In this document: in pieces, positions 104 through 64,000 of the stretch
Position numbering within the stretch: position 1 is the stretch's first letter
Layout of the letters: each line of letters starts with the position of its first letter
Source: Elsinoe ampelina
Lineage: Eukaryota
Assembly (NCBI GenBank): GCA_010093995.1
Contig: ML992506.1
Location: 692,551 to 756,550 of the forward strand
Length of the DNA stretch: 64,000 nucleotides
Direction: 5' to 3'
Notes under the pieces: generated by a model
The model's input: only the letters and a program-made list of their open reading frames with translations
What the model was told of the DNA's origin: nothing
Databases searched by the model: none
Made by a program: the position numbers and the translations under genes

Positions 104-1690
104 ATGTCTTCACCAGCGGCACCACGGAGATCAGGCTCGAGATCGAGGAGGTCTCACCCCTCCTTCTCAGACCTCCGCCTTGCACCTCTCTCGACACCAG
201 CCCCGATTCAGCAAGAAAAGGTAGACAAGTCTACAATGCGGATATCTCTCGACAGCCCTCGCACTCCTGGTAGTATAGACCCGAGCACGGCACACGCATA
301 CAAGGTCAACCACCCAAGCTACCTTGCTGGACGATCGGCCCCAACCACACCTGGTATCCTTTCACGATCCTCGAGCAGGAAAGCAGATGCAGATGGTCTA
401 AGCCGAAATGTTGTATACGCCGACGACGAAGACGAGAACATCGATCCAAGCACAAGCTACTTCGACACGCCAAACTACGCGGCCGTTCGCGTCAATGCCC
501 AAGGTGGAGTAGACTCCAATACAGGGTACATGGGTGACAAGGGCAAGAGCAAGAGCGAATCCGGTCTCAACAACGCCGCAGCGGTTCGAAAAGCCCGCCT
601 CCGCCCTCTCAGCACTGCCGGCCCCCTAGGCCTCAAGTCTCGCACACCCAACACCGCCAGCACTCCCCGTGGCCGCTCAGCCCGCCCCGTTGCTCCCTCC
701 GCAGACGACGACTGGCTCTCCCACGCCACCTCCTTCACCACCTCCCTCCTCCAAGAAGGCAAAGCCGGCGCCTGGGTCTCCTCCCACTCCTCCGTGACAA
801 ACCTCCACTCCTACTCCAACCCCAAATCCCATAGCGCCTACCCCTCATCCGACTCGGACGACGACACACCAAACTCACACTCCTCCCGCCCGACCCACCT
901 CCCCTTCTCCCCGGCCGCCCACGATGCCTCCTCCCCCGCGCTGCGCTCCCCCAACCTCAACCACCAAACCCACGGCTGGTCCTCCCGCTTCGGCTCCCGC
1001 CTCCCCTCCGCCGCCCACTCGCGCAGAAACTCCCGCGTACACCTCCGCCCTTTATCCGGCTCCACGACACCCTACCCCCTGTCCTCCACCACCGACCGGC
1101 CCCAAACAGCCACTTCCATCGACGCGATCCTCAAGCCTGACTTCGTCGACCCCCGCGCACAAAAAGAGATGGAGACCAGCCTCGCGGAGCTACAGCGTGA
1201 GCGAGCCGCCGCGCAGCAAGGGGACTACTTCGACTCCCCCAGCCAGGCCCCGTATCACCGCGGGAGACACGCGGACGACGGCGCAGGGATCGACGACGGA
1301 GACGACGACGAGGCCGAAGTCGCTCGCCTTGCGCAGACGCCTGGCTTCGGGCTGGGGGGGTTCGGGATCATCGACGCGTTGGTGGGGTTGGGTGGTTTCG
1401 GCCCGGGGGAGGAAGGGGGGGATACAGATGGTGAGACGACGTCGGGAGGGATAGGGAGGGGAAGAGATGATGATGGGGAGCGGGAGGTGGGAGGAGAGGT
1501 GGGGAATAAGAAGCGCAGGAGCGTGATGTTGGATTTGCAGGGGTGGTTCGGGAGGCAGGGGACGGGGGACGGGCGGGTGGGTGAAGGGTCAGGGGAGGGG
1601 GAGAGGGAGAGGAAGGGAGACGAGGGGGAGGGTGGGTGGAGCGATGCTGCTTGGTTGTTGAGCGTGGCTAGTAAGGCGCTTTTGTCGTAG
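104..1690 (+). CDS. Conserved fungal disordered protein, probably DUF3984 family
   Basis: Single ORF from ATG 104. Motifs 'LRLAPLS', 'SYLAGRSAPTTPGILSRSSSR' and C-terminal 'GGWSDAAWLLSVASK' are recalled as typical of this Pezizomycotina family. Confidence 0.7.
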   Translation: MSSPAAPRRSGSRSRRSHPSFSDLRLAPLSTPAPIQQEKVDKSTMRISLDSPRTPGSIDPSTAHAYKVNHPSYLAGRSAPTTPGILSRSSSRKADADGLSRNVVYADDEDENIDPSTSYFDTPNYAAVRVNAQGGVDSNTGYMGDKGKSKSESGLNNAAAVRKARLRPLSTAGPLGLKSRTPNTASTPRGRSARPVAPSADDDWLSHATSFTTSLLQEGKAGAWVSSHSSVTNLHSYSNPKSHSAYPSSDSDDDTPNSHSSRPTHLPFSPAAHDASSPALRSPNLNHQTHGWSSRFGSRLPSAAHSRRNSRVHLRPLSGSTTPYPLSSTTDRPQTATSIDAILKPDFVDPRAQKEMETSLAELQRERAAAQQGDYFDSPSQAPYHRGRHADDGAGIDDGDDDEAEVARLAQTPGFGLGGFGIIDALVGLGGFGPGEEGGDTDGETTSGGIGRGRDDDGEREVGGEVGNKKRRSVMLDLQGWFGRQGTGDGRVGEGSGEGERERKGDEGEGGWSDAAWLLSVASKALLS

Positions 1691-2287
1691 GTTTGCTTGG
1701 TGTCGTCTCGTGCAAAGGTTTTGGGAACGGGAACTGGGACTGGAAGCAGTAAATTTCATGCGGGTTAAAGTGGATCAAAGGTCATGGAACAAGAGGGGGA
1801 AAGAGCCGTGGTTTCTTGGGAGGCACGTAGATATCCTGGACTGAAATCTTTTGACATCTACGCTGGTCGTGTCCCGGGACCTACTTGTACGTGATTGCTG
1901 CACATGGCGGTGACTGAGTTGTCTTTGCGTGTCGATGCGGCAGTCGCTGTCGATCAGATCGATTTTGATGTTCCTACCGAGGGCGTATCGCTGTTGAAGA
2001 CCGCTCCTGGTTCCAGAACCCAGGATGTCTGCCGAATACCCACCCCCACGCTCGTTCCATGCTGCCATTCGAATCCAGACTCGCCATGGCTACCGCTCCG
2101 GCAGCACAAGTAACTTCTCCTCTTCCCGGCTCGTTCGCTCGTAACCACCACCATGACAAACATCCCACCAGCATGCGAAGACCCACCGGATCTGCTCGTC
2201 TCTCTACATCCCCTTGCCACACCTACCAGCATTCCTCAATACCTACCAGCCTTCTCCCCCATATCCCTCTGCCGTCAAACCCAACCC

Positions 2288-4528
2288 CTACATCCCGGGC
2301 GGTGGAGGCACCTATTGGCCCAGTCAGTACCGTACCAAATCCGCTGCACTTGCCTGCGTCCATCGCCCAACCCGTCGGCATCCCTGCCGGCCCAGCAATT
2401 GCACCTCGTCCGGACCCCATATTCCGCGTCCGAGTCGCGGAAGGGATAGGGCGGGTGAGAACCCTGCGACTCAGCGGGGCGGAAGCTCGATGGGTAGCTG
2501 GGATAAGGGCGGGGGGTGTCGCCGCGCCTTGCTTGGGGGGTTGTGTAGGCCTCCCCGTTGGCGGTCGAGCGTGGCAACGCCCCGAACTCATCCCTGTGGT
2601 GGTGCTCGCGAAAATAACGAGAGTCTGCACTTACTGCATTGTAGCCTGGTGCGCCTGCACCGGGAGGGGGCGGAGGTGGGGCGGAGTCATCCGCTGGGGG
2701 AGGCGGAGGGGGCGCCTGACCGTAGCCTTGTGCCGGAGAGGCTTCCTGTCCTGAGTATGCGGCCTGTCCTTGTGCTTGGCCTTGAGGATACTGGGCCATC
2801 ATGCTCAAGTAGACTTGGTAAGGGTCGTAACCGGGATATTGCTGGGCGATCTGAGCCAGGTATGCGTCCCATTGGGCTCTCTGGTTGGCGTCGTATCCTG
2901 AAGCAGCAGTGGGGCTCATTGCACCTCCCGCTTGAGGGTTGGTCGGGGATTGTGCGCCACCGTAGCCACCATATGCTGACTGGCCGCCGTATTGTGAGTT
3001 GCCGCCGTATTGAGAGCCGCCACCGTATGCTGATTGACCACCTCCGCCGTATGATTCTGATCGTCCGCGGTCGTCTCCACCGAATCCGCCACGACCTCCA
3101 CCTCCATAGCCACCTCGTCCTCCAAATCCACGACTGTTGGCGCGTTCTTTGAATTCTTCGTACTGCACCTTGACGTTGGCGAGGAGATCATTGCATAGAT
3201 CCTTGGCTTTGGCGACTTGTGCTGGATCTGGGGCGGCAACATGAAGGTACATTGGTTCGTCCGACTCAACTCCAGTATCGTGTTCGTAGAATCCAGATCC
3301 GCGACCTTTGATTTGTACACGGGCGCCAGTCTCCCCTTGGATATGTTTGACGTAAGATCCGCCAGAGCCGACGACTTGCGCACGGAGATTGAAACCGTTG
3401 ATAGGCTCGAGTGAGATGGGGATACGCTCTTCTGGCCATTTTCGCTGTGAATGGTCAGCACTGTGGACGTCCTGCTTACCCAAGGACCATGCATACTCTG
3501 CCTCTCTCGTCCCTCTCAAAGTCAGGCTCCCGACGACGTGGTAGCCTGCGCTCATCTATCAAATTAGGTAGATCCTGCTTCATCATCTCTTCAATCTCCT
3601 TGACGGCAGCTTCCAAGCCTTCTTTGCTGGTGCTGGTGATGTGGAGGTAAAGTGGTGGTGCCTGAATCGCGTCAGCTCAGTCATCTTGGGCACAGAAAGG
3701 TAGACGTACGGCTGCAGTGGCCATGGCTTTGTCGGGATAATACGCGCCTCGAGTTGTGACATCTTAAAAGTAATAAGCGATCTGACCTAAAGGTTAAACA
3801 TGGACGTGTGGTATGCGTACCAGCTCCGGTCTTTTCTTTGATCTAAATGTCACACGACCTCTGTCAGCAAATGCAAATACTGTGGAAAGCCTAGATGCTA
3901 AGGCAGATAAGTGAGCAAGCTAGACTCTTTTGAAATTATCTTTTGACCTTGAGTTTGAGATGTGGAATTGGAGACATTGGCTGTTCGCCTGTGTATCAGT
4001 GGGAGTGCAACAAGTGATAATTACCATTTTCTGTGTTTGCCCCTTCGTTAGGGTATAACGATTGCGAAGATCGTTGACCTCAATGTCCTTGATCCAATCT
4101 CCATCTTGCTCGTAAATGTCGAGGTTCAAACCATTCGCGTCCGTGTTTGGCGCCGGGGACTGTGTTTTCGGGAGCTGCTGTAAAAGGTCAGAGGTGAGCA
4201 TAATGCGCTCCAGCAGGCGACTCACAGTCTTGACCTGCGGCTGGCTGATGAGACCCAGCTTCTTCTTCTGTTCGAGTTCGGCGTTGATTTTGGCGGCCAT
4301 GGCTGCAGCTGCGGCGGCGGCGACAGGATTCACTGGAGTCGCCTTCTTGCGTTCGGGACTCTCCTTGCGCGCGGCTGGGCTGCGACTGCGCTTGCGTGAG
4401 GATTCATCTTTGGCTGCAGGTGATCTCGAGCGACGATCAAATCTGGAACGACGTGGATCTTGTGTTGCAGGCTCTTTCGCAGGCTCTTTCTGATCGAATC
4501 GCGAGCGCTTTCTCGAGCCGTCCGACAT
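2288..4528 (-). CDS. KH-domain RNA-binding/splicing protein (KHDC4/BLOM7-like), 7 exons, ~509 aa
   Basis: Exons 4528-4226, 4177-4025, 3842-3821, 3762-3710, 3661-3497, 3444-2635, 2311-2288 join in frame with GT-AG introns. RS-like N-terminus, 'KDIEVNDLRNRYTLTKG', KH motif 'VVGSGGSYVKHIQGETGARVQIKGRGSG', Gly/Tyr-rich tail ending VPPPPGM*. Confidence 0.88.
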
Positions 4529-5846: not shown

Positions 5847-6968
5847 TCACGATATCCGTCCCTTGTTGACTACAAAAGCTTCAATAGCAGCTGGAGCTCG
5901 TTAGACGTGGACAGCCAAATGACAATCACACTTACAGATCGCAGCCCATAGCCTGTTCTCTGCTTCGGGAAAGACCAGACTCTTCGGGCTGTAGAAGACC
6001 TCATCTGCAACCTCCTCAGGATGTCTGGGTAGACAGTGCATGAACCTCCAGTCCTCATTTGCTCCACCATCGTCGATCATCTTCTTCGTGACCTGGAAGC
6101 CCTCAAAAGCCTTCATCCTCTTCACCTTCTCCTCCTCCTGTCCCATACTCACCCAGGTATCCGTCACAATCACATTCGCCCCCTTCACCGCCTCTCTCGG
6201 CTCATTCGACTCTACCAGACTCCCCTTCCTTCCCACCCCTTCTCCAGCCGCCAGAATCACCTTCCTCATCCCTTCTGGAATCTCATACCCCTTCGGCGTC
6301 GCCACCGCCACCTCCACCCCCAATTTCATCGCCCCAATCGCCAAATCAAACAGCACATTATTCGCATCCCCAACCCACGCAATCCTCAACCCCTCCAGCC
6401 CCAAACCCTTCCCATCCTTCTTCCCAAACACCTCAAACACAGTCAAATAATCCGCAATCGTCTGCAAAGGATGATACGCATCACTCAACGCATTAATCAC
6501 CGGCACAGAACTATGTTTCGCCAAATCCGCGACGTCACTGTGACCATGCACCCGCGCCACGATGCCCGATACCATACTGCTGATGACGACAGAGGTGTCG
6601 TACAGCGATTCGTTGACGCCCAGCTGGATATCTGATGAGGAGAGGAACATGGCGTGGCCTCCCATGCGGGCTATGGCGGCTTCGGTGGAGACGCGGGTTC
6701 GAGTGGAGCGTTTGCTGAAGGGGAGGGCGATGGTTTGGCCGGCGAGCGCGGTGGCGAGGTGCGGAGGGGATGTGTTGGTGGATTTGATGTGGGTTTTGTG
6801 GGCGTGGGCGTTGCGGACGAGGGTGGTGAGCTCGGTCGGGGTGAGGTCGGAGATGCTGAGAAGGTGGCGAGGGGCGAAGGGGGAGGTGGCAGGCTTGGAG
6901 GAGGCGTAGGTTCGGCGGAGGAGGGTGCTGGGTTTGAGGGAGCGGGATAGGGGGCGGTATGGTGGCAT
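5847..6968 (-). CDS. ARG3: Ornithine carbamoyltransferase, mitochondrial
   Basis: Motifs 'FSKRSTRTR', 'HPLQ', 'DTWVSMGQE', 'FMHCLPR', 'EAENRLWA'. A final intron (GTAAGT...CTAAC...CAG) gives a last exon SAIEAFVVNKGRIS* with TGA at 5847-5849. Confidence 0.96.
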
Positions 6969-7201
6969 GGCTTAGGGGCCAATGGCTTGGGAAACAGTCT
7001 GATTGCTGCTTAAAGGTCTCGTAGCTTGCTGGAAGAGCGTTTGGGAAGAATTTAATGTTGATTTGAGGAGGATGAGTGGTAGAAACGTGAGTAATACCTA
7101 TGACTTTTTGAGAAAGCTTGGGCCATGAGTTCGCGGGGCTTTTTGATATGATGCGGCATCTTTGCTATCAATCTTTGCAATTCTGGCCAGACGCAATTGC
7201 A

Positions 7202-8614
7202 ATGATGCTTAGAAATTTGGCATTAGCTGCGCGGCGATCTCGAGCGTCCAACACCTTGCTCCAATCGGTATGCATCAGACGAACAATGTCGAGTACTGCC
7301 GTTAGGCACACAGATGGCGTGTTCAGAGCACTTACCGAGAGTCGCATACAGACGCCATGGATCGACGCGTTCCGAGCTCAGGAAGAAGCAGAGCGTACTG
7401 GAAAGACAGGTGGCTCAAGTGAGCCAGCTACGCCTCCGAGTCGCGATCTCACCCCCCGTAAAGTATCGGACAGCTACTATCGGGTCATTCTTCCACTCGG
7501 GCAGGACAAATGGCTGTTGGATACGTACGCCAATTCTTCTGGCCACATCCGCTTTGGTACCATCATGATGGACTTGGATGCCTTGTCAGGTGTCGTCGCC
7601 TATCGTCATACTGGTGACTCTGTCACGACCGTCACAGCTGCTTGTGATCGAATCGTAATCAACAACCCTTTGACTGAGATCTGTGACCTCGAGTACAGTG
7701 GAAGAGTCACTTACGCCACCGGGCGGTCAAGTATGGAGATATCTGTCCAAGTCGCCAAAGCTCCTCCAGAAGGTCAGGAAGCAAAGGAGTCTGATATCCT
7801 CCTGACCTGTCAATTCACCATGGTGTCCCTCGACAAGAACACCAAGAAGCCCGTCCCCATCCCCGCCGTCATCCCCGAGTCCGACCTCGAGAAACGCCTT
7901 TTTCAAGAAGGAGAAAAGAACCACGCCGCCCGCAAAGAGCTCAAGGAACGCTCTCTCCTCCGCCAAACTCCCAACGATGAAGAATCCGACCTCATCCACG
8001 CCATGTGGCAACGCCAACTCCAATACCACGACCCCAACGACCCCCTTCGCAAACCCAACAACGTCCACTTCATGGACACCACCCGCCTCTCCACAGCCAG
8101 CATCATGCAACCTCAATACCGCAACCGCCACAGCTTCATGATCTTCGGCGGCTTCCTGCTCAAACAAACCTTCGAGCTCGCCTTCTGCTGCGCCGCCTCT
8201 TTCGCCCACGTCCGCCCCACCTTCGTCTCCCTCGACCCTAGCACGTTCCAGAACCCCGTCCCCGTGGGCAGCGTCCTCTACCTCACCGCTACAGTAGTCT
8301 ACACCGACCCACCCATCGTCAAGGGTGCGTCGGACGGGAGTCATCCCGAGGCGGGGCACGTGGCGGACGACGGGGAGTACACGCGCGTTCAGGTGCGGGT
8401 GGATAGCAAAGTGCGCAATGTGGAGCACGGGGAGACGAAGCCGACTGGGCAGTTCAATTATACGTTCATGGTGAAGAAGGATGTCAAGGTCATGCCGAGG
8501 AGTTATAGTGAGTTTATGATGTATGTGGATGCGAGGAGGAGGGCGATGAGGGTGAGGGATACGTTGAGGACGGGGGAGGCGGATGAGGGGAGTAAGGAGC
8601 GAGTGACGGAGTGA
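7202..8614 (+). CDS. Mitochondrial acyl-CoA thioesterase, double hotdog fold (ACOT9-like)
   Basis: 'GHIRFGTIMMDLDALSG', 'TVTAACDRI', 'GRSSMEI', second hotdog 'MQPQYRNRHSFMIFGGFLLKQTFELA'; intronless ORF. Confidence 0.9.
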   Translation: MMLRNLALAARRSRASNTLLQSVCIRRTMSSTAVRHTDGVFRALTESRIQTPWIDAFRAQEEAERTGKTGGSSEPATPPSRDLTPRKVSDSYYRVILPLGQDKWLLDTYANSSGHIRFGTIMMDLDALSGVVAYRHTGDSVTTVTAACDRIVINNPLTEICDLEYSGRVTYATGRSSMEISVQVAKAPPEGQEAKESDILLTCQFTMVSLDKNTKKPVPIPAVIPESDLEKRLFQEGEKNHAARKELKERSLLRQTPNDEESDLIHAMWQRQLQYHDPNDPLRKPNNVHFMDTTRLSTASIMQPQYRNRHSFMIFGGFLLKQTFELAFCCAASFAHVRPTFVSLDPSTFQNPVPVGSVLYLTATVVYTDPPIVKGASDGSHPEAGHVADDGEYTRVQVRVDSKVRNVEHGETKPTGQFNYTFMVKKDVKVMPRSYSEFMMYVDARRRAMRVRDTLRTGEADEGSKERVTE

Positions 8615-8907
8615 GAGGGGATGAAGGGAGGGAGGGTTGGAAGTGGTTCCTGGATTCTATGTTGAGGATATGTATGGAGGTATCTATAACGTGACGCGGC
8701 GTGGAAACATGAATGCTGACAGTGGTAGTCGCCCAATCTCTTACTAAATGCGACATGCTGGACGCTAGAATGCAAAGCGCTGAAACGAGCAAATATCAAA
8801 ACGACGATGGGTATCCTCTTCTTCCTCTTCTACGCCGGTCACACGACCAATGCTTCTCGAAACCATGTGTATCCTGCCTGGTCTACTGGCTTGCCATGTA
8901 GAATGTC

Positions 8908-9129: not shown

Positions 9130-10357
9130 TGTGTGGGAGATGGTCCCTTCGGGAGGTCGCGTCGAGTGTACGTTTGGGAGTTGCTCGGGTGTGATTCACT
9201 CGCGTTGAGAGTGGCAGGCAGCGGGGATTCGATATAGGCGACTGCAGTCTTGGTACAAAGACTTGTGGATGTCAAAGGCCGAGTCAAGGGATGGTGAGAG
9301 ATTAGAGACAAAGAGGAAGCGATAAGGCCAGTCGCGTGAGTAAAGAGACAAAAGTAGACAACAATAAAGATGCCAACGATACGAGACCAAAGGGATAGGG
9401 CACAAACCGTGACGGTAATAAATGACAGGACACTGGATAGCCGGACAGTCATGCCACCTTCCGGGCCCACCGATAACGAGGGTCCAGAGCCGCTGAGATT
9501 AGTATACCAGAGACCCGTAGACCCTCAAACAAGGCGGACCCCTCCAGATTATTGGCACGAGCCAGTCAGACAGTGAACGGCGAAGGTGAACGGCGAATTA
9601 AGCTCCATGGTACCGCTGCAACGGCCAGCGAAGCGCGGCAAGGCTCGTAACATTATTGATGATTGGATCCGGGTTGGAGATAGGCAAGACTCGGGGTATG
9701 CGTAAACTTAGGAGCTGAGGTAAGAAGGTGAGGTGTCTTTGGCGGCACGTACTCGTTGATCCCTGGACCCTGATAGATTCCATGGAACCCGAGCAAATGC
9801 ACAGGCACAAAAGACCTGGGGTTGGTCGCCCTGTCTCAGAGTCTCAGACTGGGGAAAGGGAATGCGATAAGCTGCTCCTTGTTCGTCCCCCACAAGTCCA
9901 GATCTTCTCGCAGACACGGCAGGCGAACTGTCAAAGGGTCGTCGACACATGCAAGGCACGCTCGGGTCTAGAAATGATGAACAAAGCGTAGATAAGGCAT
10001 GCTGCAGGGACAATAACAATGACAGCCGCCGTGGACATCAAACGTCTGGTTTGGACCCTGGCTTGGATTGTCGTCTTGAATGAAAGTGAAGGGGTCCGAA
10101 ACAGGAGCTGTTTCCAAGATTGACTCGCCGACGTCGGGCCTTCTGGAGGTCGTCCTCCAAGAGCCGACCGACCAATCACAGCATAGATTGGATCAAGAGC
10201 TACAGTACAGCTTCATGCTCAGAAAAATGTCCAGCTCAACAGACAATATGCCCTGAACTTTCCAATATGCGTCTGAAGCCACGACCATGACCTTACACCT
10301 TCACCCAGGATTGCGGACGATTCCCCGGGAGAGCATTGGCCTCAGCAGACCACCACC

Positions 10358-11842
10358 ATGTCCTCCCTCCTAATCTACTCCTCCTGCCTCACCACCCTCA
10401 TCCTCGCCTTCATCCTCACCATCTTTCCTCCCCGCAACTACTTTGCCCCTCCATCCCTCCCCACCTATAACCACACATGGTCCATCCTCCAGCATCTCGG
10501 CGGCTCCGGCCCCTGGATCCCCCACACCACCCACGCCCTCACCCACGACCTCTCCCCTCCCCCCGGCTGTCGCGTCGACCAAGTCCACCTCATCTCCCGC
10601 CACGCAGCACGCTACCCCACGCATCCCGCAGGCATCCGCATGCTCCAGCTGTACCACCGCCTCGTGCACCTCGACACCAACTTCACTGGCCCGTTGGAGT
10701 TTCTCAACACGTGGAACTTCTTCATGCCTGACCCCGCCGGCCGGCTGGAGAATCTCGTTCCCGTTGGCCCGTACGCAGGGAGTATGCAGGCTTTCCAGAC
10801 TGGGACGGAGATGCGCACACGGTATGAAGAGCTGGTGGGAGAGGCGACGGGAAGGGGACAAACGGTGTTTTGGGCGAGCGGGAGTAGGAGGGTGGAGGAG
10901 ACGGCGAGGTACTGGGCTTTGGGGATGTGGGGACTGGAGTGGCAGGAGAAGGCGAGGTTGGAGGTTGTGAGTGAGGGGGCGGAGAGGGGTGGGGATACGT
11001 TGACTCCGGGCAGGACGTGTGAGAGGTACAGGAGTGAAGAGGAGGGAGAGGGGAGGCAGAAGGGGTATAAGAAGCTGGAAGATTGGATGAGGGTGTACCT
11101 CCCGAAGATTGGGGCGAGGCTGAAGGAGTTCCTGCCTGGAGTGGAGTTCTCGAACTTTGAGATCTTTACCATGCAAGAGATGTGTGGGTTCGAGATATTG
11201 GCGAGGGCAAGCAGTCCGTGGTGCGAGGTGTTCACGCACGAAGAGTGGGGAGAGTTCGAATACGCGAGAGATTTGCTGCACTACTATCGGGCCGGAGAAG
11301 GCAACAAGTACGGACCGACAATGGGCTGGCTGTTCCTCAATGCCACAAAGGACCTTTTGGTGCAAGGTCCTGAGGCAGGGCAACTATTCGCCAGCTTCGT
11401 CCACGATGGCGACCTTGTTCCTTTCCTGGCTGCTCTGGATCTATTTGCACAGCTTAGAAAGCTGCCCGCAGATCATGTCATGACCAACCGGACCTGGAGA
11501 ACCAGCGATGTAGTGCCGATGGGGGGACGAGTCATTCTGGAGAGACTAGCATGTCCTGCGCCGCAGAATTGCTGGAGCAATGAACCATACTACCCGAACC
11601 ATGTCTACTGCGATCCACCTCGAGACGACTACTTTGTGAGGATCAATGTCAACGACGCCATTGTGGCTCTACCAGATTGCCAGTATGGTCCTGGTGGGAG
11701 TTGTCCATTGGACAAGTTTGTCGACCACGTCAAGATGCGGCGTAGACATGCGGAAGACTTTCGAGAACTCTGTGGTCTATCAGAGGATGCACCGGCTAGA
11801 ATCACGTTCCTCAAGCAGCCGCCGCGCAAAGACAAAGGCTGA
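10358..11842 (+). CDS. Histidine acid phosphatase / phytase-like protein with N-terminal signal anchor
   Basis: Catalytic RHAARYP (RHxxRxP), HD motif 'FVHDGD', 'VPMGGRVILERLAC', 'GPGGSCPL'; hydrophobic N-terminus. Confidence 0.92.
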   Translation: MSSLLIYSSCLTTLILAFILTIFPPRNYFAPPSLPTYNHTWSILQHLGGSGPWIPHTTHALTHDLSPPPGCRVDQVHLISRHAARYPTHPAGIRMLQLYHRLVHLDTNFTGPLEFLNTWNFFMPDPAGRLENLVPVGPYAGSMQAFQTGTEMRTRYEELVGEATGRGQTVFWASGSRRVEETARYWALGMWGLEWQEKARLEVVSEGAERGGDTLTPGRTCERYRSEEEGEGRQKGYKKLEDWMRVYLPKIGARLKEFLPGVEFSNFEIFTMQEMCGFEILARASSPWCEVFTHEEWGEFEYARDLLHYYRAGEGNKYGPTMGWLFLNATKDLLVQGPEAGQLFASFVHDGDLVPFLAALDLFAQLRKLPADHVMTNRTWRTSDVVPMGGRVILERLACPAPQNCWSNEPYYPNHVYCDPPRDDYFVRINVNDAIVALPDCQYGPGGSCPLDKFVDHVKMRRRHAEDFRELCGLSEDAPARITFLKQPPRKDKG

Positions 11843-12464
11843 AGAACCAGGAAAGATCAATGAATGACCAATTTGCCCAGCTTGACAACCAGGCCGAGCG
11901 CATCCGTGGAGCAAGCTGGGCCCTCGATACACGCATCGAGAACCACAACTCAGCTCGAAAGCAGGCAGAACATCCCCCGCGGCTCGTGCGGAGTCACGGC
12001 CTGCAGAGTGCATCACCACGAGGCTCCCAGGATGTCAGTAAAGCACGATGCCTCGATCGTCACAACTCAATTGCCCGGAAATGATGTATTTCCAAGCTCG
12101 AACAAGCACGACTGCCCCGCTTCTCGGCCCTCGCTCAACCCCACTTGATCACTCTTTTTGCCCGCAGCTCCCCCGCAATTTACTGGATTGAACGACGCGC
12201 CGTCGATTCGCACGCGGGCAATGACAACATGCACATCCCGAGCTGTAACAGAGCCCGGTAGTTGAGAATTGCAGCTGTCCAAGCTCTGCAGCTGAGCTCT
12301 TGGGTTGTCCACCGGTCCGGGGATTCGGGGAGGAGAATTGAAAGTCGATAGTTTGTCCATGGCAGCTCTTCCCCTCTTTAATCACAATTCTCTCTTCATA
12401 CCTACTACCACCCCTCAATCCCAATCCTCAACCACCAATTGAACCATCCACCACCACCACCAAA

Positions 12465-13826
12465 ATGTCCAACATGAAAGCCGTCCACTACGAAGGCCCC
12501 TTCAAAGTCTCCGTCAAAGAAGTCCCCCTCCCCACCATCCAACACCCAGACGATGTCCTCGTCAAAGTCACCACCGCAGGTACGCCTCTCCCTTCACCTC
12601 TCCTCCCGTCCCCTCTCCTCCTTATACCCACCTCCTCATGTGATGTGAAACCCCACTAACCCCATCCCAACAGCCATCTGCGGCTCCGACCTCCACATGT
12701 ACCAAGGCCGCACAGCCGCCGAAGCCGGCCTCGTCTTCGGCCACGAAAACATGGGCATCATCACCGAAGTAGGCGAAGGCGTGACACTGCTCAAAAAGGG
12801 CGACAGGATCGTGTTGCCGTTCAACGTCGCGGACGGACGATGCAGGAACTGCGAGGAAGGGAGGACGGCGTTCTGCACCGGTGAGGATCCCTCGACGGCA
12901 TGGCTGGTGGGGGCGGGAAAACAAGCTGATCGGTGCGTCTAGGTGTCAACCCAGGCTTCGCGGGTGGTGCGTACGGGTATGTCGCCATGGGGCCGTATCA
13001 GGGTGGGCAGGCGCAGTATCTGCGTGTGCCGTATGCGGATTTCAACGCGTTGAAACTGCCCGAGGGGACGGAGCATGAGGCTGATTTCATTTTGTTGGCG
13101 GATATCTTTCCCACTGGGTGGCATGGGTTGGTCTTGGCGGGGTTCAAGTCGGGGGAGACGGTAGCTGTCTTTGGTGCTGGGCCGGTTGGGTTGATGGCTG
13201 CGTACTCGGGGGTGATTCGCGGTGCGAGCAAGGTGTTTGTTGTTGATCAGGTCAAGGAGCGGCTGGATGCGGCGAAGAAGATTGGTTGCATTCCGGTCAA
13301 TTTCACGGAGGGAGACCCTGTGGCCAAGATCATTGAGTTGAATGGTGGGGAGATGGTGGATCGCGCGGTGGATGCTGTGGGATACCAGGCTGTTGACAAG
13401 GGAGGGAAGAAGGAGCAGCCGAACGTGGTGCTTGACCAATTGATCATGGTGACGAGGCCGACGGGTGGTCTTGGTATTCCAGGTCTTTACGTACCTGCTG
13501 TAGGTTCCATGCCGTTCGTCAAAGTTGTTCTTACTGACTTGTTTCAGGATCCCGGTGCTCCAGACTCGCAGTCTGCAAAGGGCCAGATTCTGATCTCCTT
13601 CGGCAAGCTCTTCGAAAAGGGCCTGACGCTCGGTACTGGTCAGTGCAACGTCAAGTCCTACAATCGATACCTCCGGGACCTCATCATCTCCGGTAAGGCG
13701 AAGCCAAGTTTCGTGGTGAGCCACGAGATCACCCTCGACAACGCTGTCGAGGCATACGACAAGTTCGACCGCAGGATTGATGGGTATACCAAGGTCCTTA
13801 TCCACCCCAACGGACCTTTGTCTTGA
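12465..13826 (+). CDS. Zn-dependent MDR dehydrogenase, glutathione-independent formaldehyde dehydrogenase (FdhA)-like
   Basis: Introns 12580-12673, 12881-12942, 13500-13547. Motifs 'AICGSDLHMY', 'GHENMG', 'DGRCRNC...C', 'YGYVAMGPYQGGQAQYLRVPYADFN', 'DIFPTGWH', 'GAGPVG'. Confidence 0.9.
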
Positions 13827-50900: not shown

Positions 50901-53507
50901 CAGAAGACGTCGAGGACAGTTTCCAAACTGCTGCAGAGAGCCCAGAATCTCTTCGCAAGGATGTCGAGGACCTGCTCGACCAAGCTCTCCCACGGGACAC
51001 AGCGAAAACTGAACAGACTGGAGCAGACGGTGTTAGAGACACAGCCAAGCTAAATGCTATGGATGATCCAAATCCGTCAACAACTTCGGATCACCTTTCA
51101 GAACACGCAGAGAGTCCTTTGAAGGAGTTGTTCAGGTATACCACTCAGACTGTATCGCCCGCGTCACCTGTTCAGGCTGGAGCCCAGGCGGAATCATCGG
51201 TGCACCAAAAGCAATCACCACAGCAAGATCCTTCTGCTCATTCCAAGGACATTCTCAAGCCGATTGGCCCGAAGCAGACACCGTCGCTCAGTCCTTATGC
51301 CAGGCAAGCTCCAGTAAAGAAGAAAGACAAGAAGAAAGCAAAGGCGAAGGTCAAGGGCAAGCAGGAGTCCGGTCCTCAGTCCCGTTCGAGTAGTGTTACG
51401 GGAGCCAGCGACATGGCGATGACGGATACTTCGGGACATCAGCAGACTGTATCTTCCGTTCGTGCTGATCAGGTGCCTGTTCATGATGGCGCCGACGAGC
51501 CTCCACTCAGCCCTTCCAAAGCAGCCTTGCGTGGTTTGAAGACTGCCATGTCACGGCCCTTCAAATACATGGCTGGACGCAGCTCCGCAAAGCTTCCGGT
51601 CGACGAGGCTGACGCTACTCTCGAACAAGCTTCATACGAAGTAGAAGAAGAAACTCGTGGCTTCGCACACGCCGCAAATTCTGGATCGGAAATCAAAGGA
51701 AATCACACTACCGACGCACAGTACAAAGTCGCTGCACTCCCTGAGAGTCCTACCGCTAGTTCTGCACACTCGCAAAATTCGATCGAGGGTCGCAACGAAC
51801 CATTCACCTTTCGTTCTTCTCAACAAGGGCCCAGCTTTGGCCTTGATGGTGCGTTGACGGTCCGTGACACAAACGTCCCTGAGGAGGACAATCAGATGGT
51901 GCTTTTCGACAAAGGCAAGGCGGTGGCGTCCCCAGATGAGCTCGAGCAGATGACTGCCACCACCGAGAGCAGCTGCACTGTCTCGATCAGCGCTGCTAGC
52001 AGCAGGTCGACAAGTCCGACGGCGATTCGTAGGAACGTTTCTAGCGGCGATTCACACCTGGTAAAGCCCAAAGTGGATCGACTTAGTGCCCGCAAGAAGC
52101 GTAAAAACCGCAACAAGAGACATGGCGCAAAGTCCAAGCAGGACAGCGAGGATGATGGAGATGAGAACGCTTTGGCCAAGGTGAGCCACACTTTTTCTAT
52201 TACCGACATCTGCGATGGGAACGGGAAGCAAGTGATTCTCCTGCAAGCCAACGATGAGGGAGGCAAGCCCAAGAGGAAGAAATTCGTCCGAAAGACACCA
52301 ACGGAGAGGGAGAATGAGCGCAGAGAGAAGCTCAAGTATCCTATGAAGAAGCTGGAGCATGAGGAAAGGGTGTTGAAGCTTATGAAGCAGGGGGATATGG
52401 ATGCGCTGGAGGAAGAGGAGAACCAGTGGGCTCGCTACGAGCGCAAGCGCAAGGGAGAGCCGGAGCCGCTCATCCTCAAGTTGCTCGAGCATATTGGTGG
52501 CCGCGTATTGTAGTCGCGCGACAGACAGTGTTCCATATAGTTAGCGAAATTATGCTCATGGTGCTGATAATGCATTTCAGATCCCCGAAGTTCACGAACA
52601 GTCCGCTGGAGCATTTCATGCCCAACATGAGGAGGTTCAAGATGCACTCCGCGCTCATCTTGAGGAGGCCGAGACAAAAGCTGCACAAGCTCTCTGTCAG
52701 CTTGCCCAGGGGGATGAATCGCGCGACCAGAACGAAGTTGAAGTCTCACCAGATAGTACGGTGCTCCACCCCGAGGGTTCGGATGTCCCACCAGAAGATG
52801 CTGGCGTCATTTCAGATGGCGCAGACGTCCAGCCAGACCGCACGCTTAGTCTGCCAGATAGGACTGCGCCAGCCGCCAACCAGGAGGCATCTTTCAGCTC
52901 GACGGCCACGACGCCTATAATGACCCCAGGTCCAGCAACACCCACCGATGGATTCGACATGGCCGCCGAATGGCAGAAGTACAAGGACAGGAAAGACCGC
53001 TTCCAAGCCACCCTCACCATGCCCGACAGCCCCGTCGGCATCGACGCCGCCTCAAGGGCCCGTAGCGACTCCCTCCAGCCCCCCACTCGCAGTCCCACCA
53101 CGGATCACAGCGCAAGACGTCCTCACCCCTCAATCGACACCATCTTCGCGCCTGCCGGTCGCGCCGTGACCGAGAACGTGCTCGAGAAATTCAATCGCCT
53201 CATGTTCCACTCGGACCTCGCGGTAGCCAAAGCGTTTGCGGAGAGGTGGATGGCGCTCGGGCGGCGTTTGGGTTCCGCAGAGGCGGCGTGCAAGGCGGCG
53301 ACCGAGGTGGGGGATGGAGCGGCGATGGAGAGGGCGAGGGAGAGCATGAGGGTTGACGAGGAGAGTAAGGCGGAGGCCCAGAAGCAGCTGACGCGGATGA
53401 CGAGGGAGGCGCAGTCGCTTGTGGCGGAGTTGTTGAAGGCGTGGATGGAGGGGAGGTATGAGGAGAGGTTGAAGAGGTTTGAGAGTTGTGATGGGGCGGT
53501 GTGGTAG
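47951..53507 (+). CDS. Large (~1810 aa) orphan protein: N-terminal helical repeats, RGG, cryptic RRM-like domain, long disordered region, coiled-coil C-terminus
   Basis: ORFs 47951-49798, 49802-52513 and 52761-53507 join in frame via introns 49798-49845 (GTTAGT..GCTAAT..CAG) and 52505-52580 (GTATTG..GCTGAT..CAG); spliced length 5433 nt. The second donor is weaker, so the 52513 stop may be used instead. Confidence 0.7.
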
Positions 53508-54221
53508 GGAGGAGTGGAAAGGGGGTGTTGATTTGTGCTTGGATTTGGACGTTCGTTTTTCGGGGAGGGCGGCTTTCGCTGATGGGGTGGAGGTATTGCT
53601 TGGGGATGGATGTTTTCTATCGCTGATTGGGTGAGATGTTGATCTGACCTGTCTGGCTCTTGGTGCCCTAGTGATCACTGCAATGTTTGATATCCACGTC
53701 TTGATCATGCCCAAGCACGACAACAGACGTGAGAGGTTGGCATACTCGATGCAATCAACGTTTAGAATGCCAGGTTCACTGCTTACATACTGACCTGCCG
53801 ATTTGACACACGCTCCCTCATGAGGCGCCACTTTACAAAGCAACAGTCCCCACATGGCGACGGGCATAATTTCTCCAGAATGAGATCGCCATTTAGGGCA
53901 TGTTGAGACAAAGCTGGGGCGTCCCACATGAACCTTGTTCAAGGTGCGAGGATATACGCACAGCCAGGCAGCGAAATGGTATTTGCGAATTGACACGCCG
54001 GACAGTCTGCCAAACATGTAACCATGCGTGGTTATTTGTTGTCGTTATACAAAAAGGTGATCATGTGGGATCCCACGATCGATGGCTAGGGACGGGCCGG
54101 CGAGCGAAAGAGCGCCACATTTGCATTTGATCAGCATGTGGCACTCGAGCCAATTGGATGGAACTCGGTCGTCTTCTGGCCTTCGCTGGACTGCTTTGAC
54201 GGGAATCCACTCCGGCCCACC

Positions 54222-54469: not shown

Positions 54470-55486
54470 ATGAACAGCGTGATACCAACTCACACGCTGT
54501 TCGCTCCTCACCTGCTTGAGAACCCCCGACACTCACCACCTCGCAACGGTATCTATTCTCCTCACCAAACCCGCCATCGACATCATCTGACGTCTCCAGA
54601 CTTCTACTCCGCCTCCACCATGTCAGGCCGCAAGCGTAAAGCTTCCACACCGCCCGCCGACGACCGCATGTCCACATCGCCCACCGCCTCCCCATCCGTC
54701 CCCAACCGCACACTCCCACCTCCTCTCCAGCCACGATTCAAACGAACCCGCACAAACGCCGCGACCGGCCGACCGCTCGACCTCCCTCGACTCCTCGAGA
54801 CCCTCTCCCCTACCGACCTCCGCTCCGTCATCACCCAACTCTGCACCTCCCACCCCTCCCTCACCGGCGTGGTCACATCCCTCGCCCCCCGTCCAACCCT
54901 CGAATCCACCCTCTCCGTCCTCCACAAATACGAAGAAACCTTCAAATCCTCCTTCCCCTTCGGCAACCGCCCAACAAGCGACTACACCTACAACCGAGTC
55001 AAAACGGCCCTTCACTCCCTCCTCGAAGCCCTCAAAGACTTTACCCCCAGCTTCCTCCCACCACAAGAACACCAACCCACCGTCTCCCTCAGCTACCTCG
55101 ACGCTGTCACAGACATCGTCCACCGTCTACCGAACTGGGACACACCCAGTCACAACCGCTCGAAAGAGGAGGCGTACGAAGAACTCGGATCCGCGTGGGC
55201 GGCCGTGGTGAAAGAAGCCACGAAGCGAAGCGGGGGGATCCAGCTTGGGTTTGTAGGCTGGGAGGACCGGGTCAGGCGACACCATGAGCTGAGCGGTGGG
55301 AGGCTGCAAGGGGCGGTGGAGGAGTTGAGGAAAGGGTTGGGGGTTTGGGGTGGTGGAAGCGGGGCAGCGCCGATGGGGAGCGGGATGGGGATCGGGAATG
55401 CGGGCATGGAGGAGAGGGAGAGGGTGAGGAGGGAGTTGTTGAGCGGGAATTATGGGGCGGGGATGGTGGGTGGGGGCCAGTGGTAG
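54470..55486 (+). CDS. STS1: Nuclear proteasome tethering factor Sts1/Cut8
   Basis: 'MSGRKRKA', 'GRPLDLPRLLETL', 'APRPT', 'SDYTYNRVK', 'DFTPSFLPP', 'VHRLPNWD'; probable 51-nt in-frame intron 54549-54599. Confidence 0.9.
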   Translation: MNSVIPTHTLFAPHLLENPRHSPPRNGIYSPHQTRHRHHLTSPDFYSASTMSGRKRKASTPPADDRMSTSPTASPSVPNRTLPPPLQPRFKRTRTNAATGRPLDLPRLLETLSPTDLRSVITQLCTSHPSLTGVVTSLAPRPTLESTLSVLHKYEETFKSSFPFGNRPTSDYTYNRVKTALHSLLEALKDFTPSFLPPQEHQPTVSLSYLDAVTDIVHRLPNWDTPSHNRSKEEAYEELGSAWAAVVKEATKRSGGIQLGFVGWEDRVRRHHELSGGRLQGAVEELRKGLGVWGGGSGAAPMGSGMGIGNAGMEERERVRRELLSGNYGAGMVGGGQW

Positions 55487-56167
55487 AAGACTGCTCTGTC
55501 CTCGAACACTACAAGGCAGTGTAACTCTGAACCATGGCGTTGAAGGGAGAACGATGAAGCGATCGATGCCCTGCAGCTTCCTGCACGCCGGAACAAGATG
55601 GCACACACATAACGACCTCATGAACCTTTTTTTCATATCGCATCGCCTCGCGGCTGGGCTGGCTTGGGGTGGAAGGACACTTGCTACGAACGGCACACTG
55701 CTGATGGGGAAGGCACAAGCAGATATTTGCTCGGGATAATGACCGGTACATAGAGGAGAGGAGGAAGGTGGTGTCTTGCTTCAGTATGCTTAGACACCGG
55801 CATAAGTGGACTTGCTACGAATGAACGAATCATCACAACCCATCACCGTTGCACCACGTAGCTCCCTCTCGAACTCGCAAAGGATATCCCGCCGTCTCAT
55901 GTCTCGTCTCCGCATCGGGACACTCACTGCCTCTCTACCCGCGTCACTCCCTTTCTGCACTCACCGCTCACTAATAATAACCTTGCAACGTCACCGTCAC
56001 GGAATATCAGCTCTTGGAACAAGAAAAGGGGTGGTCAAGGTCCTCCATTCCCCCCCGTGCCCCGCTCTGATCTGTAGTTGATGTAGTCCTGCTATGCACC
56101 GGTGCGTCCTAACCTTGTACACTACTGCACTCCCTCCGCCTCGCCTCTCTCGCCCGTCACATGCAAC

Positions 56168-56189
56168 CCAGCCAGCCAGCCAGCCAGCC
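56168..56189. repeat. (CCAG)n microsatellite, ~5 copies
   Basis: ccagccagccagccagccagcc in the STS1-ANP1 intergenic region. Confidence 0.85.
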
Positions 56190-56569
56190 AAAATCGCCTG
56201 ATCTGCATCCACCTCCGCCTCGCACGCCTCTTTGGCGTCGAACAAAAAACGAGCAGATGATTAGTCTTCCCCTACCCCCCCCGGCCGCCTCTGCTCTCCC
56301 AAAAAAACAAGCCATAATCAACAGCAATACAAAGAAGCATATCCAACCCTTTCACACCAGATAGTAAAGAGAGAGAAGGTGGGAGGGGTGGGGTGGGGGG
56401 GCATTACATCGCTCATCCTATCTCATTTCGTCCTTCATCCCGCAGCCCAACATACACGACCAGAATATCAGGCTCTCAAGGGCGGAAGCTCCAGCACCCA
56501 CGTGTCACCAGGGAGATATGACTCTCCCGCATCACCCATCTCCTCTTGGCCCCGTGCGTATCCTGGCTC

Positions 56570-63300: not shown

Positions 63301-63350
63301 GCATAAGAGAGGCGCGGGCGCTGGGCATCAACATCGTCATTCGGATCTAA
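60349..63350 (+). CDS. Conserved fungal hypothetical protein (~984 aa) with C-terminal 'ARAWC...RTCLGCCIREA' motif
   Basis: ORFs 60349-60705 and 60702-63350 join in frame through a GC-AG intron 60619-60665. Motifs 'GWLSRSWLTGLVMPGE', 'YWSKSCVAGRVLA', 'LLARAWCA...RTCLGCCIREARAL'. Confidence 0.75.
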
Positions 63351-64000
63351 GGCGCATTTCGACATTATGCATTGGGGAGACTGGACGGCGTTCACGGCAT
63401 CATCCATGGCATCGCACAAAGTGATGTATCCAGCTCGACTTTGCTGCAGAAAAAATTTCCCACGCAGCGACGAAGCCCTGACATGTGCCTCCCAGCCTCA
63501 CCTCAGTAACCTCCCCCTCTCCCCGGGCTGGCCCAAGGTACATAACCATTTCTCCCCCCTCCCTCCCTCAGCGATCGGTCCCATGAATAGCCCAGTCGGC
63601 TGCCGCGTCGCAGTCCGGTTCCGAAAAGCGCTGCCAACCAGAATCTCACAAAGATTTGGTGCAGCACTCCCGCACTCGTAGAGGCTGTCGGTTCGAAACC
63701 CGTCGACGTCGTCCATTTGTCTGGACGGATGACGTTGAGGGGTGGGTTCGAGAAAACCAGATCTGACGTCAAAGCCATCCGACCCCCTGTCTTGCGATTC
63801 AGGGGGGAGTACACACGTTAGGGGAGAGTTGTATTTTTTGGCCATTTTTCTTGCTGGGGGGGAGGGGGGTGAATGGCGAGGGGATGGGAGAGGTTGGCGA
63901 GGGAGGGATGGGCGAGGTTGGCATTAAAGGTTTAAAAGGAAGGGTTTAGGATGGTTTGGCAGGGCATTTGAGGTTCGGGGGACTGGGGGTTTATCTTCTG

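Follow-up and report, generated by a model that had tools for sequence, protein, structure and literature searches.

C-to-G skew islands anchored to genes in a 64-kb stretch of the Elsinoe ampelina genome

In 64,000 nt of Elsinoe ampelina DNA (GCA_010093995.1, contig ML992506.1, positions 692,551 to 756,550, forward strand; hereafter the window), blocks of C-rich sequence that turn G-rich are anchored to genes, most of which make this turn toward their end, and the skew reshapes both codon use and amino-acid composition. We hold with moderate confidence that these islands are local peaks of a sawtooth repeated gene by gene, arising from a strand asymmetry that is most likely mutational, and that they represent an extreme, ~1-kb form of the 5'-C/3'-G gradient of fungal genes. 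That fungal pattern is itself already known, though unexplained; the island-like extreme form is what is seen here.

Results

How real are the islands, and how consistent is their polarity? We compared GC skew in the 300 nt on each side of a point and counted jumps of at least 0.6. Across the whole window this detector returned 18 C-to-G jumps and matched, within 100 nt, 16 of the 18 switch points proposed by a sequence-only reading, bearing out the existence of about 18 islands (about 1 per 3.5 kb; Table 1). The other two are 15350, a gradual switch that the detector places 264 nt away at 15614, and 56370, whose 31-nt right arm is too short for it to be detected; a further jump, at 23666, was absent from the earlier list. 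Skew of |GC| ≥ 0.4 occurs in 90 of 639 200-nt windows and ≥ 0.6 in 34 of 639, compared with 0.14 and 0.00 expected from 200 shuffles within 2-kb blocks. Pooled composition is A.21, C.44, G.17, T.18 in left arms; A.18, C.16, G.46, T.20 in right arms; and A.24, C.27, G.26, T.23 in the remainder of the window.

The predominance of C-then-G polarity also stood, full reversals being rare: jumps of at least 0.8 number 11 C-to-G vs. 2 G-to-C, and opposite blocks lying side by side number 12 vs. 2 (binomial p = 0.013). Most G-to-C events are either island edges, at which strong skew drops to about 0, or junctions of neighboring islands (1997, 15959). The flip is less abrupt than the ~100 nt originally proposed, with a peak-to-peak distance of about 200–300 nt in the switch-aligned profile. 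This profile is symmetric, with arms of about 400–500 nt, skew fading 400–700 nt from the switch, and a central GC maximum of.63 vs..54–.56 at ±600 nt. AT skew flips mildly along with the arms, and a search for a motif common to the switch points found none.

Table 1. Skew islands of the window (gene strand in parentheses; positions in nt from the start of the window)
Island	Span	Switch	Gene and placement	Remarks
1	560..1690	~1259	DUF3984 gene (+), 3' part	G-arm ends at stop codon 1688-1690
2	2150..2720	~2431	BBP/KH-domain gene (-), 3' end and 3'UTR	Weaker
3	6040..6990	~6577	ARG3, ornithine carbamoyltransferase (-), nearly whole exon 1	Begins near 5'UTR; zero C at third positions of codons 162-262
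4	7830..8650	~8317	ORF 7112-8611 (+), 3' end	ORF without Pfam match, with coding-like periodicity
5	10350..11120	~10738	Histidine-phosphatase gene (+), 5' half	Anchored at 5' end; gene skew-neutral in final ~600 nt ahead of stop
6	12370..13480	~12765	Zn-dehydrogenase (ADH-like) gene (+), 5'UTR to exon 3	
7	14620..15890	15224-15350, gradual	CHS5 (+), whole ORF	G-arm stops at stop codon
8	15990..17010	~16418	ORF 15984-17819 (-), 3' end	
9	18180..18790	~18389	Ferric reductase gene (-), 3' end	
10	22000..22480	~22299	ORF 22043-23749 (-), 3' end	Sense C-rich part reaches about 23131
11	28740..29880	~29199	WDR59 (+), last 1.1 kb	G-arm stops at stop codon; C-arm codes S/P/T-rich linker, conserved RING finger inside G-arm
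12	30300..30790	~30493	FAM210-domain gene (-), inside	
13	39280..40140	~39494	Secreted Cys-rich repeat protein gene (-, 39378-40745), 3' end	Sense strand C-rich for most of gene length
14	43320..44190	~43839	XPF/RAD1 (+), last 0.9 kb	C-arm spans ERCC4 nuclease domain
15	52990..53630	~53219	ORF 52545-53504 (+), 3' end	
16	54520..55490	~55161	Cut8 gene (+), most of it	G-arm stops at stop codon
C-rich (+) block	56110..56400		Non-coding	No real right arm; in sense, G-rich stretch 3' of Anp1 (-) stop codon
18	63490..63990	~63677	3' of ORF 60657-63347 (+)	Cut by window end

Are the islands independent of genes, as had been supposed? Their placement says otherwise. Counting all gene calls, 7 of which are ORFs only (and skewed DNA inflates ORFs), 21 of 22 cumulative-skew minima, where C gives way to G, sit inside ORFs by more than 60 nt (57% expected, P = 7e-5), and only 3 of 21 maxima, where G gives way to C, lie deep inside them (P = 7e-5), the remaining 18 coinciding with gene borders or falling in unannotated DNA. 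No jump in the window is sharper than the G-to-C drop (D = 1.34) between CHS5 and ORF 15984-17819, which are convergent with stop codons about 100 nt apart. The shared polarity of + and - genes, once offered as evidence of independence, is uninformative, because C-then-G reads C-then-G on either strand; read in sense, every island is C-rich and then G-rich. Over the final 300 nt of 22 coding regions, mean sense skew is +0.30 (random sets of 22, 0.002 ± 0.052, maximum 0.23); the skew usually peaks just ahead of the stop codon and has decayed by 100–200 nt past it.

Other observations weigh against the gene-by-gene reading. Skew of at least +0.3 in the last 300 nt is found in only 9 of 22 genes, and in 5 of 15 of those backed by Pfam. 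The strong islands of the histidine-phosphatase, ADH, and ARG3 genes start 5' and end 200–1100 nt short of the stop codon. In the long genes WDR59, XPF, and FRE, a strong C-arm adjoins the G-arm away from the 5' end, a placement that a simple "5' C, 3' G" rule fails to predict. Nor is skew a simple function of expression, since the cyclophilin gene, probably highly expressed, has only a weak island.

Silent sites are the most skewed, and introns and UTRs are skewed as well, in keeping with the strand-asymmetric, nucleotide-level force proposed in the sequence-only reading. Third positions are C in.64 of cases in C-arms and G in.61 in G-arms (.33 and.23 outside), and four-fold sites reach C.67/G.10 and G.64/C.13, with a purine excess on the G-rich strand. 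Two of three introns examined lie within arms; ADH intron 1 (12579-12672) has a skew of -0.70, intron 2 (12885-12941) +0.28, and the ADH 5'UTR -0.37. Among K/E/Q codons the NNG share goes up from.58 to.88 on the G-rich strand and is down to.35 in C-arms; among Y-ending codons the NNC share drops from.64 to.42 in G-arms. Many amino-acid changes have been imposed by the skew on conserved enzymes.

Is this degree of skew particular to the lineage? We measured the contrast in amino-acid skew between the two arm regions for window proteins and for other homologues:.61 vs..24 ±.08 for ARG3 (n = 114),.92 vs..38 ±.06 for WDR59 (n = 109), and.29 vs..07 ±.08 for XPF (n = 116). Metagenome-derived fungal relatives show the same direction of skew, more weakly, and the direction of the ARG3 gradient is kept in relatives with about 71% protein identity. 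These protein comparisons indicate that the skew has been intensified in the Elsinoe/Sphaceloma lineage.

Discussion

What could write such a pattern into individual genes? In our preferred reading, an asymmetry acts on DNA (or pre-mRNA), and the coding strand of each transcription unit runs from C-rich, G-poor to G-rich, C-poor and is reset at the border with the next gene. Under the mechanism we infer, the G-rich strand of an arm would be single-stranded more often than its partner and would lose C and A and gain G by two routes. One would be deamination (C>T, A>G); the other would be bypass of abasic sites by Rev1/Pol zeta, with C inserted opposite them (C>G, T>G). Exposure would fall on the non-template strand in the 3' arm, compatible with R-loops at terminators, and on the template strand in the upstream arm, for which antisense transcription or antisense R-loops would be required. 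Because G-richness favors R-loops, the skew could be self-amplifying. The symmetric profile and the GC peak at the switch fit a switch-centered process too; mismatch-specific repair at a recombination hotspot may be at work, or a process linked to R-loops.

In its recombination form, this alternative makes each switch the center of a meiotic initiation hotspot at which heteroduplex repair is biased by mismatch type and strand; if, for example, G.T mismatches were converted and A.C restored, the invading strand would become rich in C+A to the left and in G+T to the right. Besides symmetry and the central GC peak, arms about the length of half conversion tracts agree with this, the T>C and G>A shifts of one strand would be derivable from such a mismatch rule, and in Zymoseptoria, another Dothideomycete genus, many inferred hotspots are described in exons (PMC5844332). 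The same study, however, describes GC-biased gene conversion as weak or absent (PMC5844332), and a purely GC-biased form is contradicted here, since half of the two-fold sites shift toward AT, namely the K/E/Q NNG share in C-arms and the NNC share in G-arms. The arms moreover break off at stop codons and 3'UTRs, each G-arm has its maximum at the outer end, away from the switch, the switch points lack a common motif, and simple exposure of a resected 3' tail should give the opposite polarity. The retention of the ARG3 gradient at ~71% protein identity fits gene structure better than labile hotspots, and we regard hotspots as unlikely.

The G-to-C borders might instead be the centers. Double-strand breaks, or another event exposing single-stranded DNA, would then fall in nucleosome-free intergenic DNA at both gene ends; the repeatedly exposed 3'-tailed strand would drift to G, genes in any orientation would become C-rich 5' and G-rich 3', and the C-to-G switch would be a mere meeting point of two zones of influence. 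The location of 18 of 21 skew maxima and the sharp drop between the convergent genes are as this model would have them, its polarity would agree with 3'-tail exposure, and yeast resection lengths, of the same order as arms of 220–700 nt, favor it. However, in WDR59, XPF, and FRE the arms adjoin far from borders with no G-rich zone beyond the C-arm, and the ILV6, Anp1, and Coa1 borders have no strong arms; we give this model only a small chance. It seems similarly improbable that composition itself is selected, whether for R-loop-assisted termination in a compact genome, RNA pairing of arms, G4/i-motif structures, or nucleotide economy (CTP-avoidance, McLean & Tirosh). Genes are tightly packed here, as between CHS5 and its neighbor, closely packed human genes are described as having terminal positive skew with R-loops (PMC3787257), and an adaptive hypothesis has been published (McLean & Tirosh 2011, PMC3315797). 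Against this, the arms of 17 islands are no more complementary than composition predicts (mean z 0.66), conserved enzymes pay in many amino-acid changes, and introns are skewed too, yet missing from mature mRNA. The paired G4/i-motif structures suggested from the sequence fare no better: G-runs of at least 3 number 603 (703 in mononucleotide and 634 in dinucleotide shuffles) and G4 motifs 25 (29.5 expected), at or under composition expectation.

Comparison with known systems

An upward C-to-G jump marks replication origins, as is established for bacteria, and origin skew jumps and the deamination gradients of vertebrate mtDNA share such a jump, with keto (G+T) vs. amino (A+C) excess on complementary arms. 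The islands resemble both, and the polarity of the jump would suit bidirectional origins with G-rich leading strands. What does not fit is the density (some 18 sites in the 64 kb), arms that span at most 0.7 kb and whose skew fades rather than continuing to the next terminus, switches within ORFs, arms bounded by gene ends, and the absence of a common motif. The islands probably do not mark replication origins, an explanation that we consider very remote.

Transcription-linked systems come closer. As in the plant and fungal peaks of Fujimori 2005 (PMC555766), the C-arms of the ADH, ARG3, and phosphatase genes start within the 5'UTR or close to the TSS, and their C content exceeds twice that of G; the peak described there was measured within about 100 bp on each flank of the TSS, whereas C-arms here span 230–730 nt, are followed by a G-arm, and lie mostly near 3' ends. 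The islands share with the loci described by Ginno 2013 (PMC3787257) GC-rich skewed DNA and terminal positive skew in closely packed genes, and with skewed bidirectional CpG islands a non-template strand that is G-rich both ways from the center; unlike those loci, they lie inside coding sequence, and their G-clusters are not enriched. In yeast, Owiti 2018 (PMC6063437) describes mutagenesis tied to transcription and R-loops that affects the non-transcribed strand by way of abasic sites and Rev1/Pol zeta. We infer a tie between mutagenesis of this type and the islands: an exposed strand should undergo T>G and C>G, in agreement with the composition of the G-rich strand here, which is shifted towards G throughout at the expense of C and A. 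That work used reporter assays in repair mutants, and the part of it drawn on here reports no evolutionary footprint this large.

The closest counterpart is the 5'-C/3'-G gene gradient of fungi described by McLean & Tirosh 2011 (PMC3315797). In both, C prevails on the coding strand at first and G later, the effect includes four-fold sites, skew extends into UTRs, amino-acid usage is shifted, and positive skew is maximal at the stop codon. As presented in that account, the gradient emerges as a mean across genes and is described for yeasts and other unicellular fungi only, with similar magnitudes at four-fold sites and positions 1–2 and a uniform AT skew. In the window, by contrast, four-fold sites are more affected, AT skew flips mildly with the arms, and skew attains ±0.5 to 0.8 in individual genes of a filamentous Dothideomycete, in paired ~1-kb arms that are often confined to the last kilobase of long genes.

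Reality, Polarity, and Shape of the Islands

Are the skew islands—each a C-rich, G-poor arm (C-arm) followed by a G-rich, C-poor arm (G-arm), with a switch point between them—genuine features of this DNA? They are real and striking. A jump detector that contrasts the 300 nt to either side of a position found 18 C-to-G jumps in GC skew of at least 0.6, and 16 of these lie within 100 nt of a switch point proposed in the sequence-only reading. That earlier list needs some revision: a jump was detected at CHS5, but it is gradual and 264 nt from the proposed position, another proposed switch has almost no right arm, and a further jump is added (see table of features). The claimed excess of C-to-G over G-to-C switches is borne out, at 11 versus 2 for jumps of at least 0.8 and 12 versus 2 for adjoining blocks of opposite skew (P = 0.013). 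Pooled left arms contain.44 C and.17 G, and pooled right arms contain.46 G and.16 C, compared with.27/.26 in the remainder of the window; absolute skew is at least 0.4 in 90 of 639 windows, versus 0.14 from 2-kb block shuffles. The flip, thought to occur within ~100 nt, instead takes ~200–300 nt peak to peak. G+C peaks at the switch (.63 versus.54–.56 at ±600 nt), and AT skew undergoes a mild sign change across it, from ~+0.05 on the left to ~−0.1 on the right. At four-fold sites, A exceeds T in C-arms and T exceeds A in G-arms.

Gene Content of the Window

The 64 kb are fungal nuclear DNA with 55% G+C. The window has 210 stop-to-stop ORFs that reach 100 aa, and Pfam scans over every one of them identified ~16 genes, including those for DUF3984, a BBP-like KH protein, ILV6, ARG3, a histidine phosphatase, a Zn-dehydrogenase, a cyclophilin, CHS5, a ferric reductase, WDR59, a FAM210-domain protein, XPF/RAD1, Coa1, Cut8, and Anp1. 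Seven gene calls are ORFs with coding-like periodicity only. The best named protein match of ARG3 is from Elsinoe ampelina (99%), while WDR59 has one match at 100% and its best named match in E. fawcettii (74%); next-best matches come from E. fawcettii, E. australis, Sphaceloma murrayae, and Myriangium duriaei. Reading ARG3 through its intron yields a false C-terminus, and the exons of the ADH-like gene come from mapping its annotated protein to the window. In "Dothideomycetidae sp. 11243," the ARG3, ADH-like, and WDR59 homologues have neighboring locus tags (022380, 022370, and 022310, respectively), which suggests that the gene neighborhood is conserved beyond the genus. The 7.4-kb segment lacking long ORFs does not look RIP-mutated, because its G+C is ordinary (.51–.54).

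Features of the window (window positions)
Position	Strand	Feature	Observation
798-1451	+	ORF in skewed arm	Long, overlapping; no Pfam match
1258-1755	-	ORF in skewed arm	Long, overlapping; no Pfam match
5847-6968	-	ARG3	46-nt intron, 13 codons upstream of stop
12465-13826	+	ADH-like gene	3 introns of 94, 57, and 48 nt
15881-15984		Convergence of CHS5 (+) and ORF 15984-17819 (-)	~100 nt between stops
15984-17819	-	ORF	Converges with CHS5
22043-23749	-	ORF	Contains 23131-23749
23131-23749	-	Sense-strand G-then-C reversal	One reversal, one of three ORF-internal maxima; could reflect mis-joining of genes or be a genuine exception
23666		C-to-G jump	Extra to the earlier list
28844-29512	-	ORF in skewed arm	Long, overlapping; no Pfam match
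29145-30005	-	ORF in skewed arm	Long, overlapping; no Pfam match
31100-38500		7.4-kb segment	No ORF of at least 210 aa; no Pfam match among 11 ORFs of at least 100 aa
33401-33700		C-rich block	Single short block in 31100-38500
39378-40745	-	ORF	Signal-peptide-like start; three ~75-aa repeats with conserved Cys pattern, Pro/Thr-rich linkers between; weak EB-module Pfam match, no other; product probably a secreted protein
56370		Proposed switch	Right arm practically absent

Relation of the Islands to Genes

Is the placement of the islands independent of genes, as the sequence-only reading held? Its argument that polarity is the same in + and − genes is uninformative, because C-then-G reads identically on both strands, and the positions themselves speak against independence. 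We used a cumulative-skew walk (threshold 45), in which a C-to-G switch is a minimum and a G-to-C switch a maximum, and counted as inside any point more than 60 nt within an ORF. By this measure, 21 of the 22 minima fall inside ORFs, where 57% would be expected (P = 7e-5). Of the 21 maxima, only 3 are ORF internal (P = 7e-5), the other 18 being at gene borders (14) or in unannotated DNA (4).

Read along the coding strand, the G-arm is typically maximal just 5′ of the stop codon, and skew decays over the 100–200 nt past stop codons. Sense skew in tenths, with a slash marking the stop, runs +7 +8 +7 +9 / +3 +1 in WDR59, +4 +7 +8 / +1 in CHS5, and +3 +7 +8 / 0 in Cut8. The final 300 nt of 22 coding regions have a mean sense skew of +0.30, versus 0.002 ± 0.052 for random sets of 22. 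The sharpest G-to-C drop of the window (D = 1.34) lies between CHS5 and the ORF converging on it, whose 3′UTRs must overlap because so short a distance separates their stops. Other observations count against anchoring to genes, however. A skew of +0.3 is reached by only 9 of the 22 genes (5 of the 15 that are Pfam backed), and neither ILV6 nor Anp1 has a G-rich end in its coding sequence, Anp1 being G-rich only downstream of its stop. The strong islands of the phosphatase, ADH, and ARG3 genes start at the 5′UTR and finish 200–1,100 nt before the stop, and in long genes the strong C-arm adjoins the G-arm rather than the 5′ end. The seven gene calls supported by ORF periodicity only also weigh against it.

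A Nucleotide-Level Force

The islands are the product of a nucleotide-level force and not a protein artefact. Across nine Pfam-backed ORFs, skew peaks at third positions, with C at.64 in sense C-arms and G at.61 in G-arms, compared with.33 and.23 outside. The check proposed with the original observation, a restriction to four-fold and noncoding sites, leaves the islands standing: they peak at third and four-fold positions and extend to introns. These maxima, together with the intron skew, rule out a protein-level artefact. In ARG3, the frequency of C at third positions (C3) is.72–.82 over codons 12–112 and 0.00 over codons 162–262. The minority base is actively avoided in both arm types: C-arms avoid AAA, GAA, and CAA, for example, and G-arms avoid TGT, CAT, and GAT. 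In the ADH-like gene, skew is −0.70 in intron 1 (in the C-arm), +0.28 in intron 2 (in the G-arm), +0.05 in intron 3 (at the island edge), and −0.37 in the 5′UTR; because these introns and the 5′UTR are skewed, selection on translation or on mature mRNA is unlikely, as far as three introns can show. Amino acid usage tracks the skew as well, when G-arms are set against C-arms (Gly 15.6 versus 4.9%, Glu 11.1 versus 3.4%, Pro 3.9 versus 10.2%, and Ser 4.2 versus 12.4%).

Base and codon choice by arm (fractions)
Class	C-arm	G-arm	Outside
C at four-fold sites	.67	.13	.29
G at four-fold sites	.10	.64	.21
NNG among K/E/Q codons	.35	.88	.58
NNC among F/Y/H/N/D/C (Y-ending) codons	.89	.42	.64

How far does the pattern extend among relatives? 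ARG3 in three fungal metagenome loci (~71% identity) has a gradient in the same direction but weaker; in the metagenome ARG3 locus L003, C3 goes from.58 to.20 and G3 from.04 to.56. We also compared the two arm regions of proteins by scoring amino acids by the G-minus-C of codon positions 1 and 2. The ARG3 contrast is.61 in the window and in E. fawcettii, versus.24 ±.08 (maximum.51) in 114 other homologues. That of WDR59 is.92, versus.38 ±.06 in 109 others, with E. fawcettii and Sphaceloma at ~.78–.79 and Myriangium at ~.45, and that of XPF is.29, versus.07 ±.08 in 116 others, a baseline near zero. From the weaker same-direction signal of the relatives and these contrasts, the trait is therefore old, shared, and intensified in Elsinoe/Sphaceloma. 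Judging by the homologues of ARG3 and WDR59 in other fungi, where the contrast is weaker but in the same direction, skew in these two genes sits on a weaker contrast intrinsic to the protein; because the homologues share it, the positional pattern may be partly seeded by protein composition.

Candidate Explanations

What could generate such switches? Replication origins, proposed in the sequence-only reading, do not fit. Origin skew is expected to extend from an origin to the neighboring termini, and origins to lie tens of kilobases apart, whereas here skew is back to ~0 by 500–700 nt from the switch and there are ~18 switches per 64 kb. Nor do the switches have the gene-independent position or motif that this explanation implied: they lie inside ORFs, their arms stop at gene ends, and no motif is shared among them. 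No 6-mer was significant at the switches after correction for the 1,339 tested (best P = 5e-5), and the top-ranking 6-mers are CpG-rich words reflecting the mixed zone. Selection for G4 or i-motif structures, also suggested earlier, finds no support in motif counts, which are not above composition expectation: G-runs of at least three number 603, versus 703 in mononucleotide and 634 in dinucleotide shuffles, and G4 motifs number 25 versus 29.5 expected. The sequence-only reading held that the arms are not exact inverted repeats, and they are not diverged ones either; when each left arm was locally aligned to its right arm in reverse complement, there was no complementarity beyond composition (mean z 0.66 versus shuffles over 17 islands), and diverged inverted repeats or a hairpin were rejected.

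Hotspots of GC-biased conversion should have a local GC peak at their center, as the islands do, and should be enriched for AT-to-GC changes in every site class and on either strand. Pure GC-biased conversion is nonetheless excluded, because the minority base is actively avoided in both arm types: NNG makes up.35 of K/E/Q codons in C-arms, down from.58 outside, and NNC makes up.42 of Y-ending codons in G-arms, down from.64. A process centered on the switch itself—recombination or divergent transcription—is alive as a rival, and in its favor the profile is symmetric about the switch with the GC peak there.

For a gene-anchored process, we infer a mechanism from the composition of the G-rich strand of each arm, on which C and A are lost, G is gained from all bases, and T is roughly kept. 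Deamination of exposed single strands (C>T and A>G) would produce this in combination with abasic sites opposite which Rev1/Pol zeta inserts C during bypass (C>G and T>G). Such mutations in yeast are described as increasing with transcription and, with R-loop accumulation, as increasing specifically on the nontranscribed strand (PMC6063437). In 3′ G-arms, the sense strand would be exposed by R-loops near terminators; in C-arms, the opposite strand would be, for example by antisense transcription. R-loops reportedly promote antisense transcription. Feedback, in which skew favors R-loops and R-loops add skew, could supply the amplitude. We offer as a long shot the reading that, in Elsinoe and close relatives, ~1-kb modules seeded at gene ends are self-amplifying hypermutation zones. 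In these, a G-rich nontemplate strand would promote R-loops, and its exposure in them to deamination and abasic bypass would add more G; the R-loops would also initiate antisense transcription, with the same outcome on the other strand just upstream. If true, the modules would correspond in fungi to skewed bidirectional CpG islands and would lie inside coding sequence, overriding codon preference (100 ARG3 codons without C at third positions) and reshaping conserved proteins.

Significance and Comparison with Known Systems

The fungal 5′-C/3′-G gene gradient has had no accepted cause since its description in 2011. At the amplitude seen here, single genes are readable by eye. The high amplitude, along with skew in one small clade that exceeds that of its sister lineages, provides a natural system in which to look for the mechanism. 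Codon usage and amino acid composition are distorted by skew, with glycine differing threefold between arms. Several long ORFs overlap one another in the skewed arms, with both strands represented (see table of features); stop codons are scarce in G-poor or C-poor DNA. False opposite-strand ORFs are inflated by skew and can mislead gene callers, and in these plant pathogens selection tests, phylogenetics, and expression predictors based on codons can be misled by skew as well.

No description of nuclear skew islands, whether in Elsinoe or in other Dothideomycetes, turned up among the literature matches listed, nor was an extension of the 2011 pattern to filamentous fungi among the three citing papers found. 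The matches were an unrelated Bacillus genome paper and, among the 10 listed of 21 on Dothideomycetes, nine on mitochondrial genomes and one nuclear genome report (Mycosphaerella graminicola; PMC3111534). Related patterns are on record elsewhere. In plants and some fungi, C exceeds G at TSSs (Fujimori 2005; PMC555766). Ginno (2013; PMC3787257) links terminal positive skew of closely packed human genes to R-loops; a G-rich sense strand at 3′ ends is seen here too, from sequence alone. The closest likeness is to the gradient that McLean and Tirosh (2011; PMC3315797) describe in most unicellular fungi, whose coding strands are C-biased 5′ and G-biased 3′. As they describe it, the bias affects four-fold sites and amino acids, extends into UTRs, and peaks at the stop codon; its cause is given as not known. 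Here, too, the sense order is 5′-C/3′-G (given the ORF-internal minima, the maxima outside ORFs, and the mean terminal skew, though only 9 of 22 genes reach +0.3), skew is present at four-fold sites, in introns, in the 5′UTR, and beyond stops, and amino acid usage shifts between arms. AT skew, by their account, is roughly uniform along genes, whereas here it mildly changes sign at switches. Overall, the islands are best filed as a variant of this known fungal gene-skew gradient, itself without a known cause, that is extreme in degree and intensified in one lineage.
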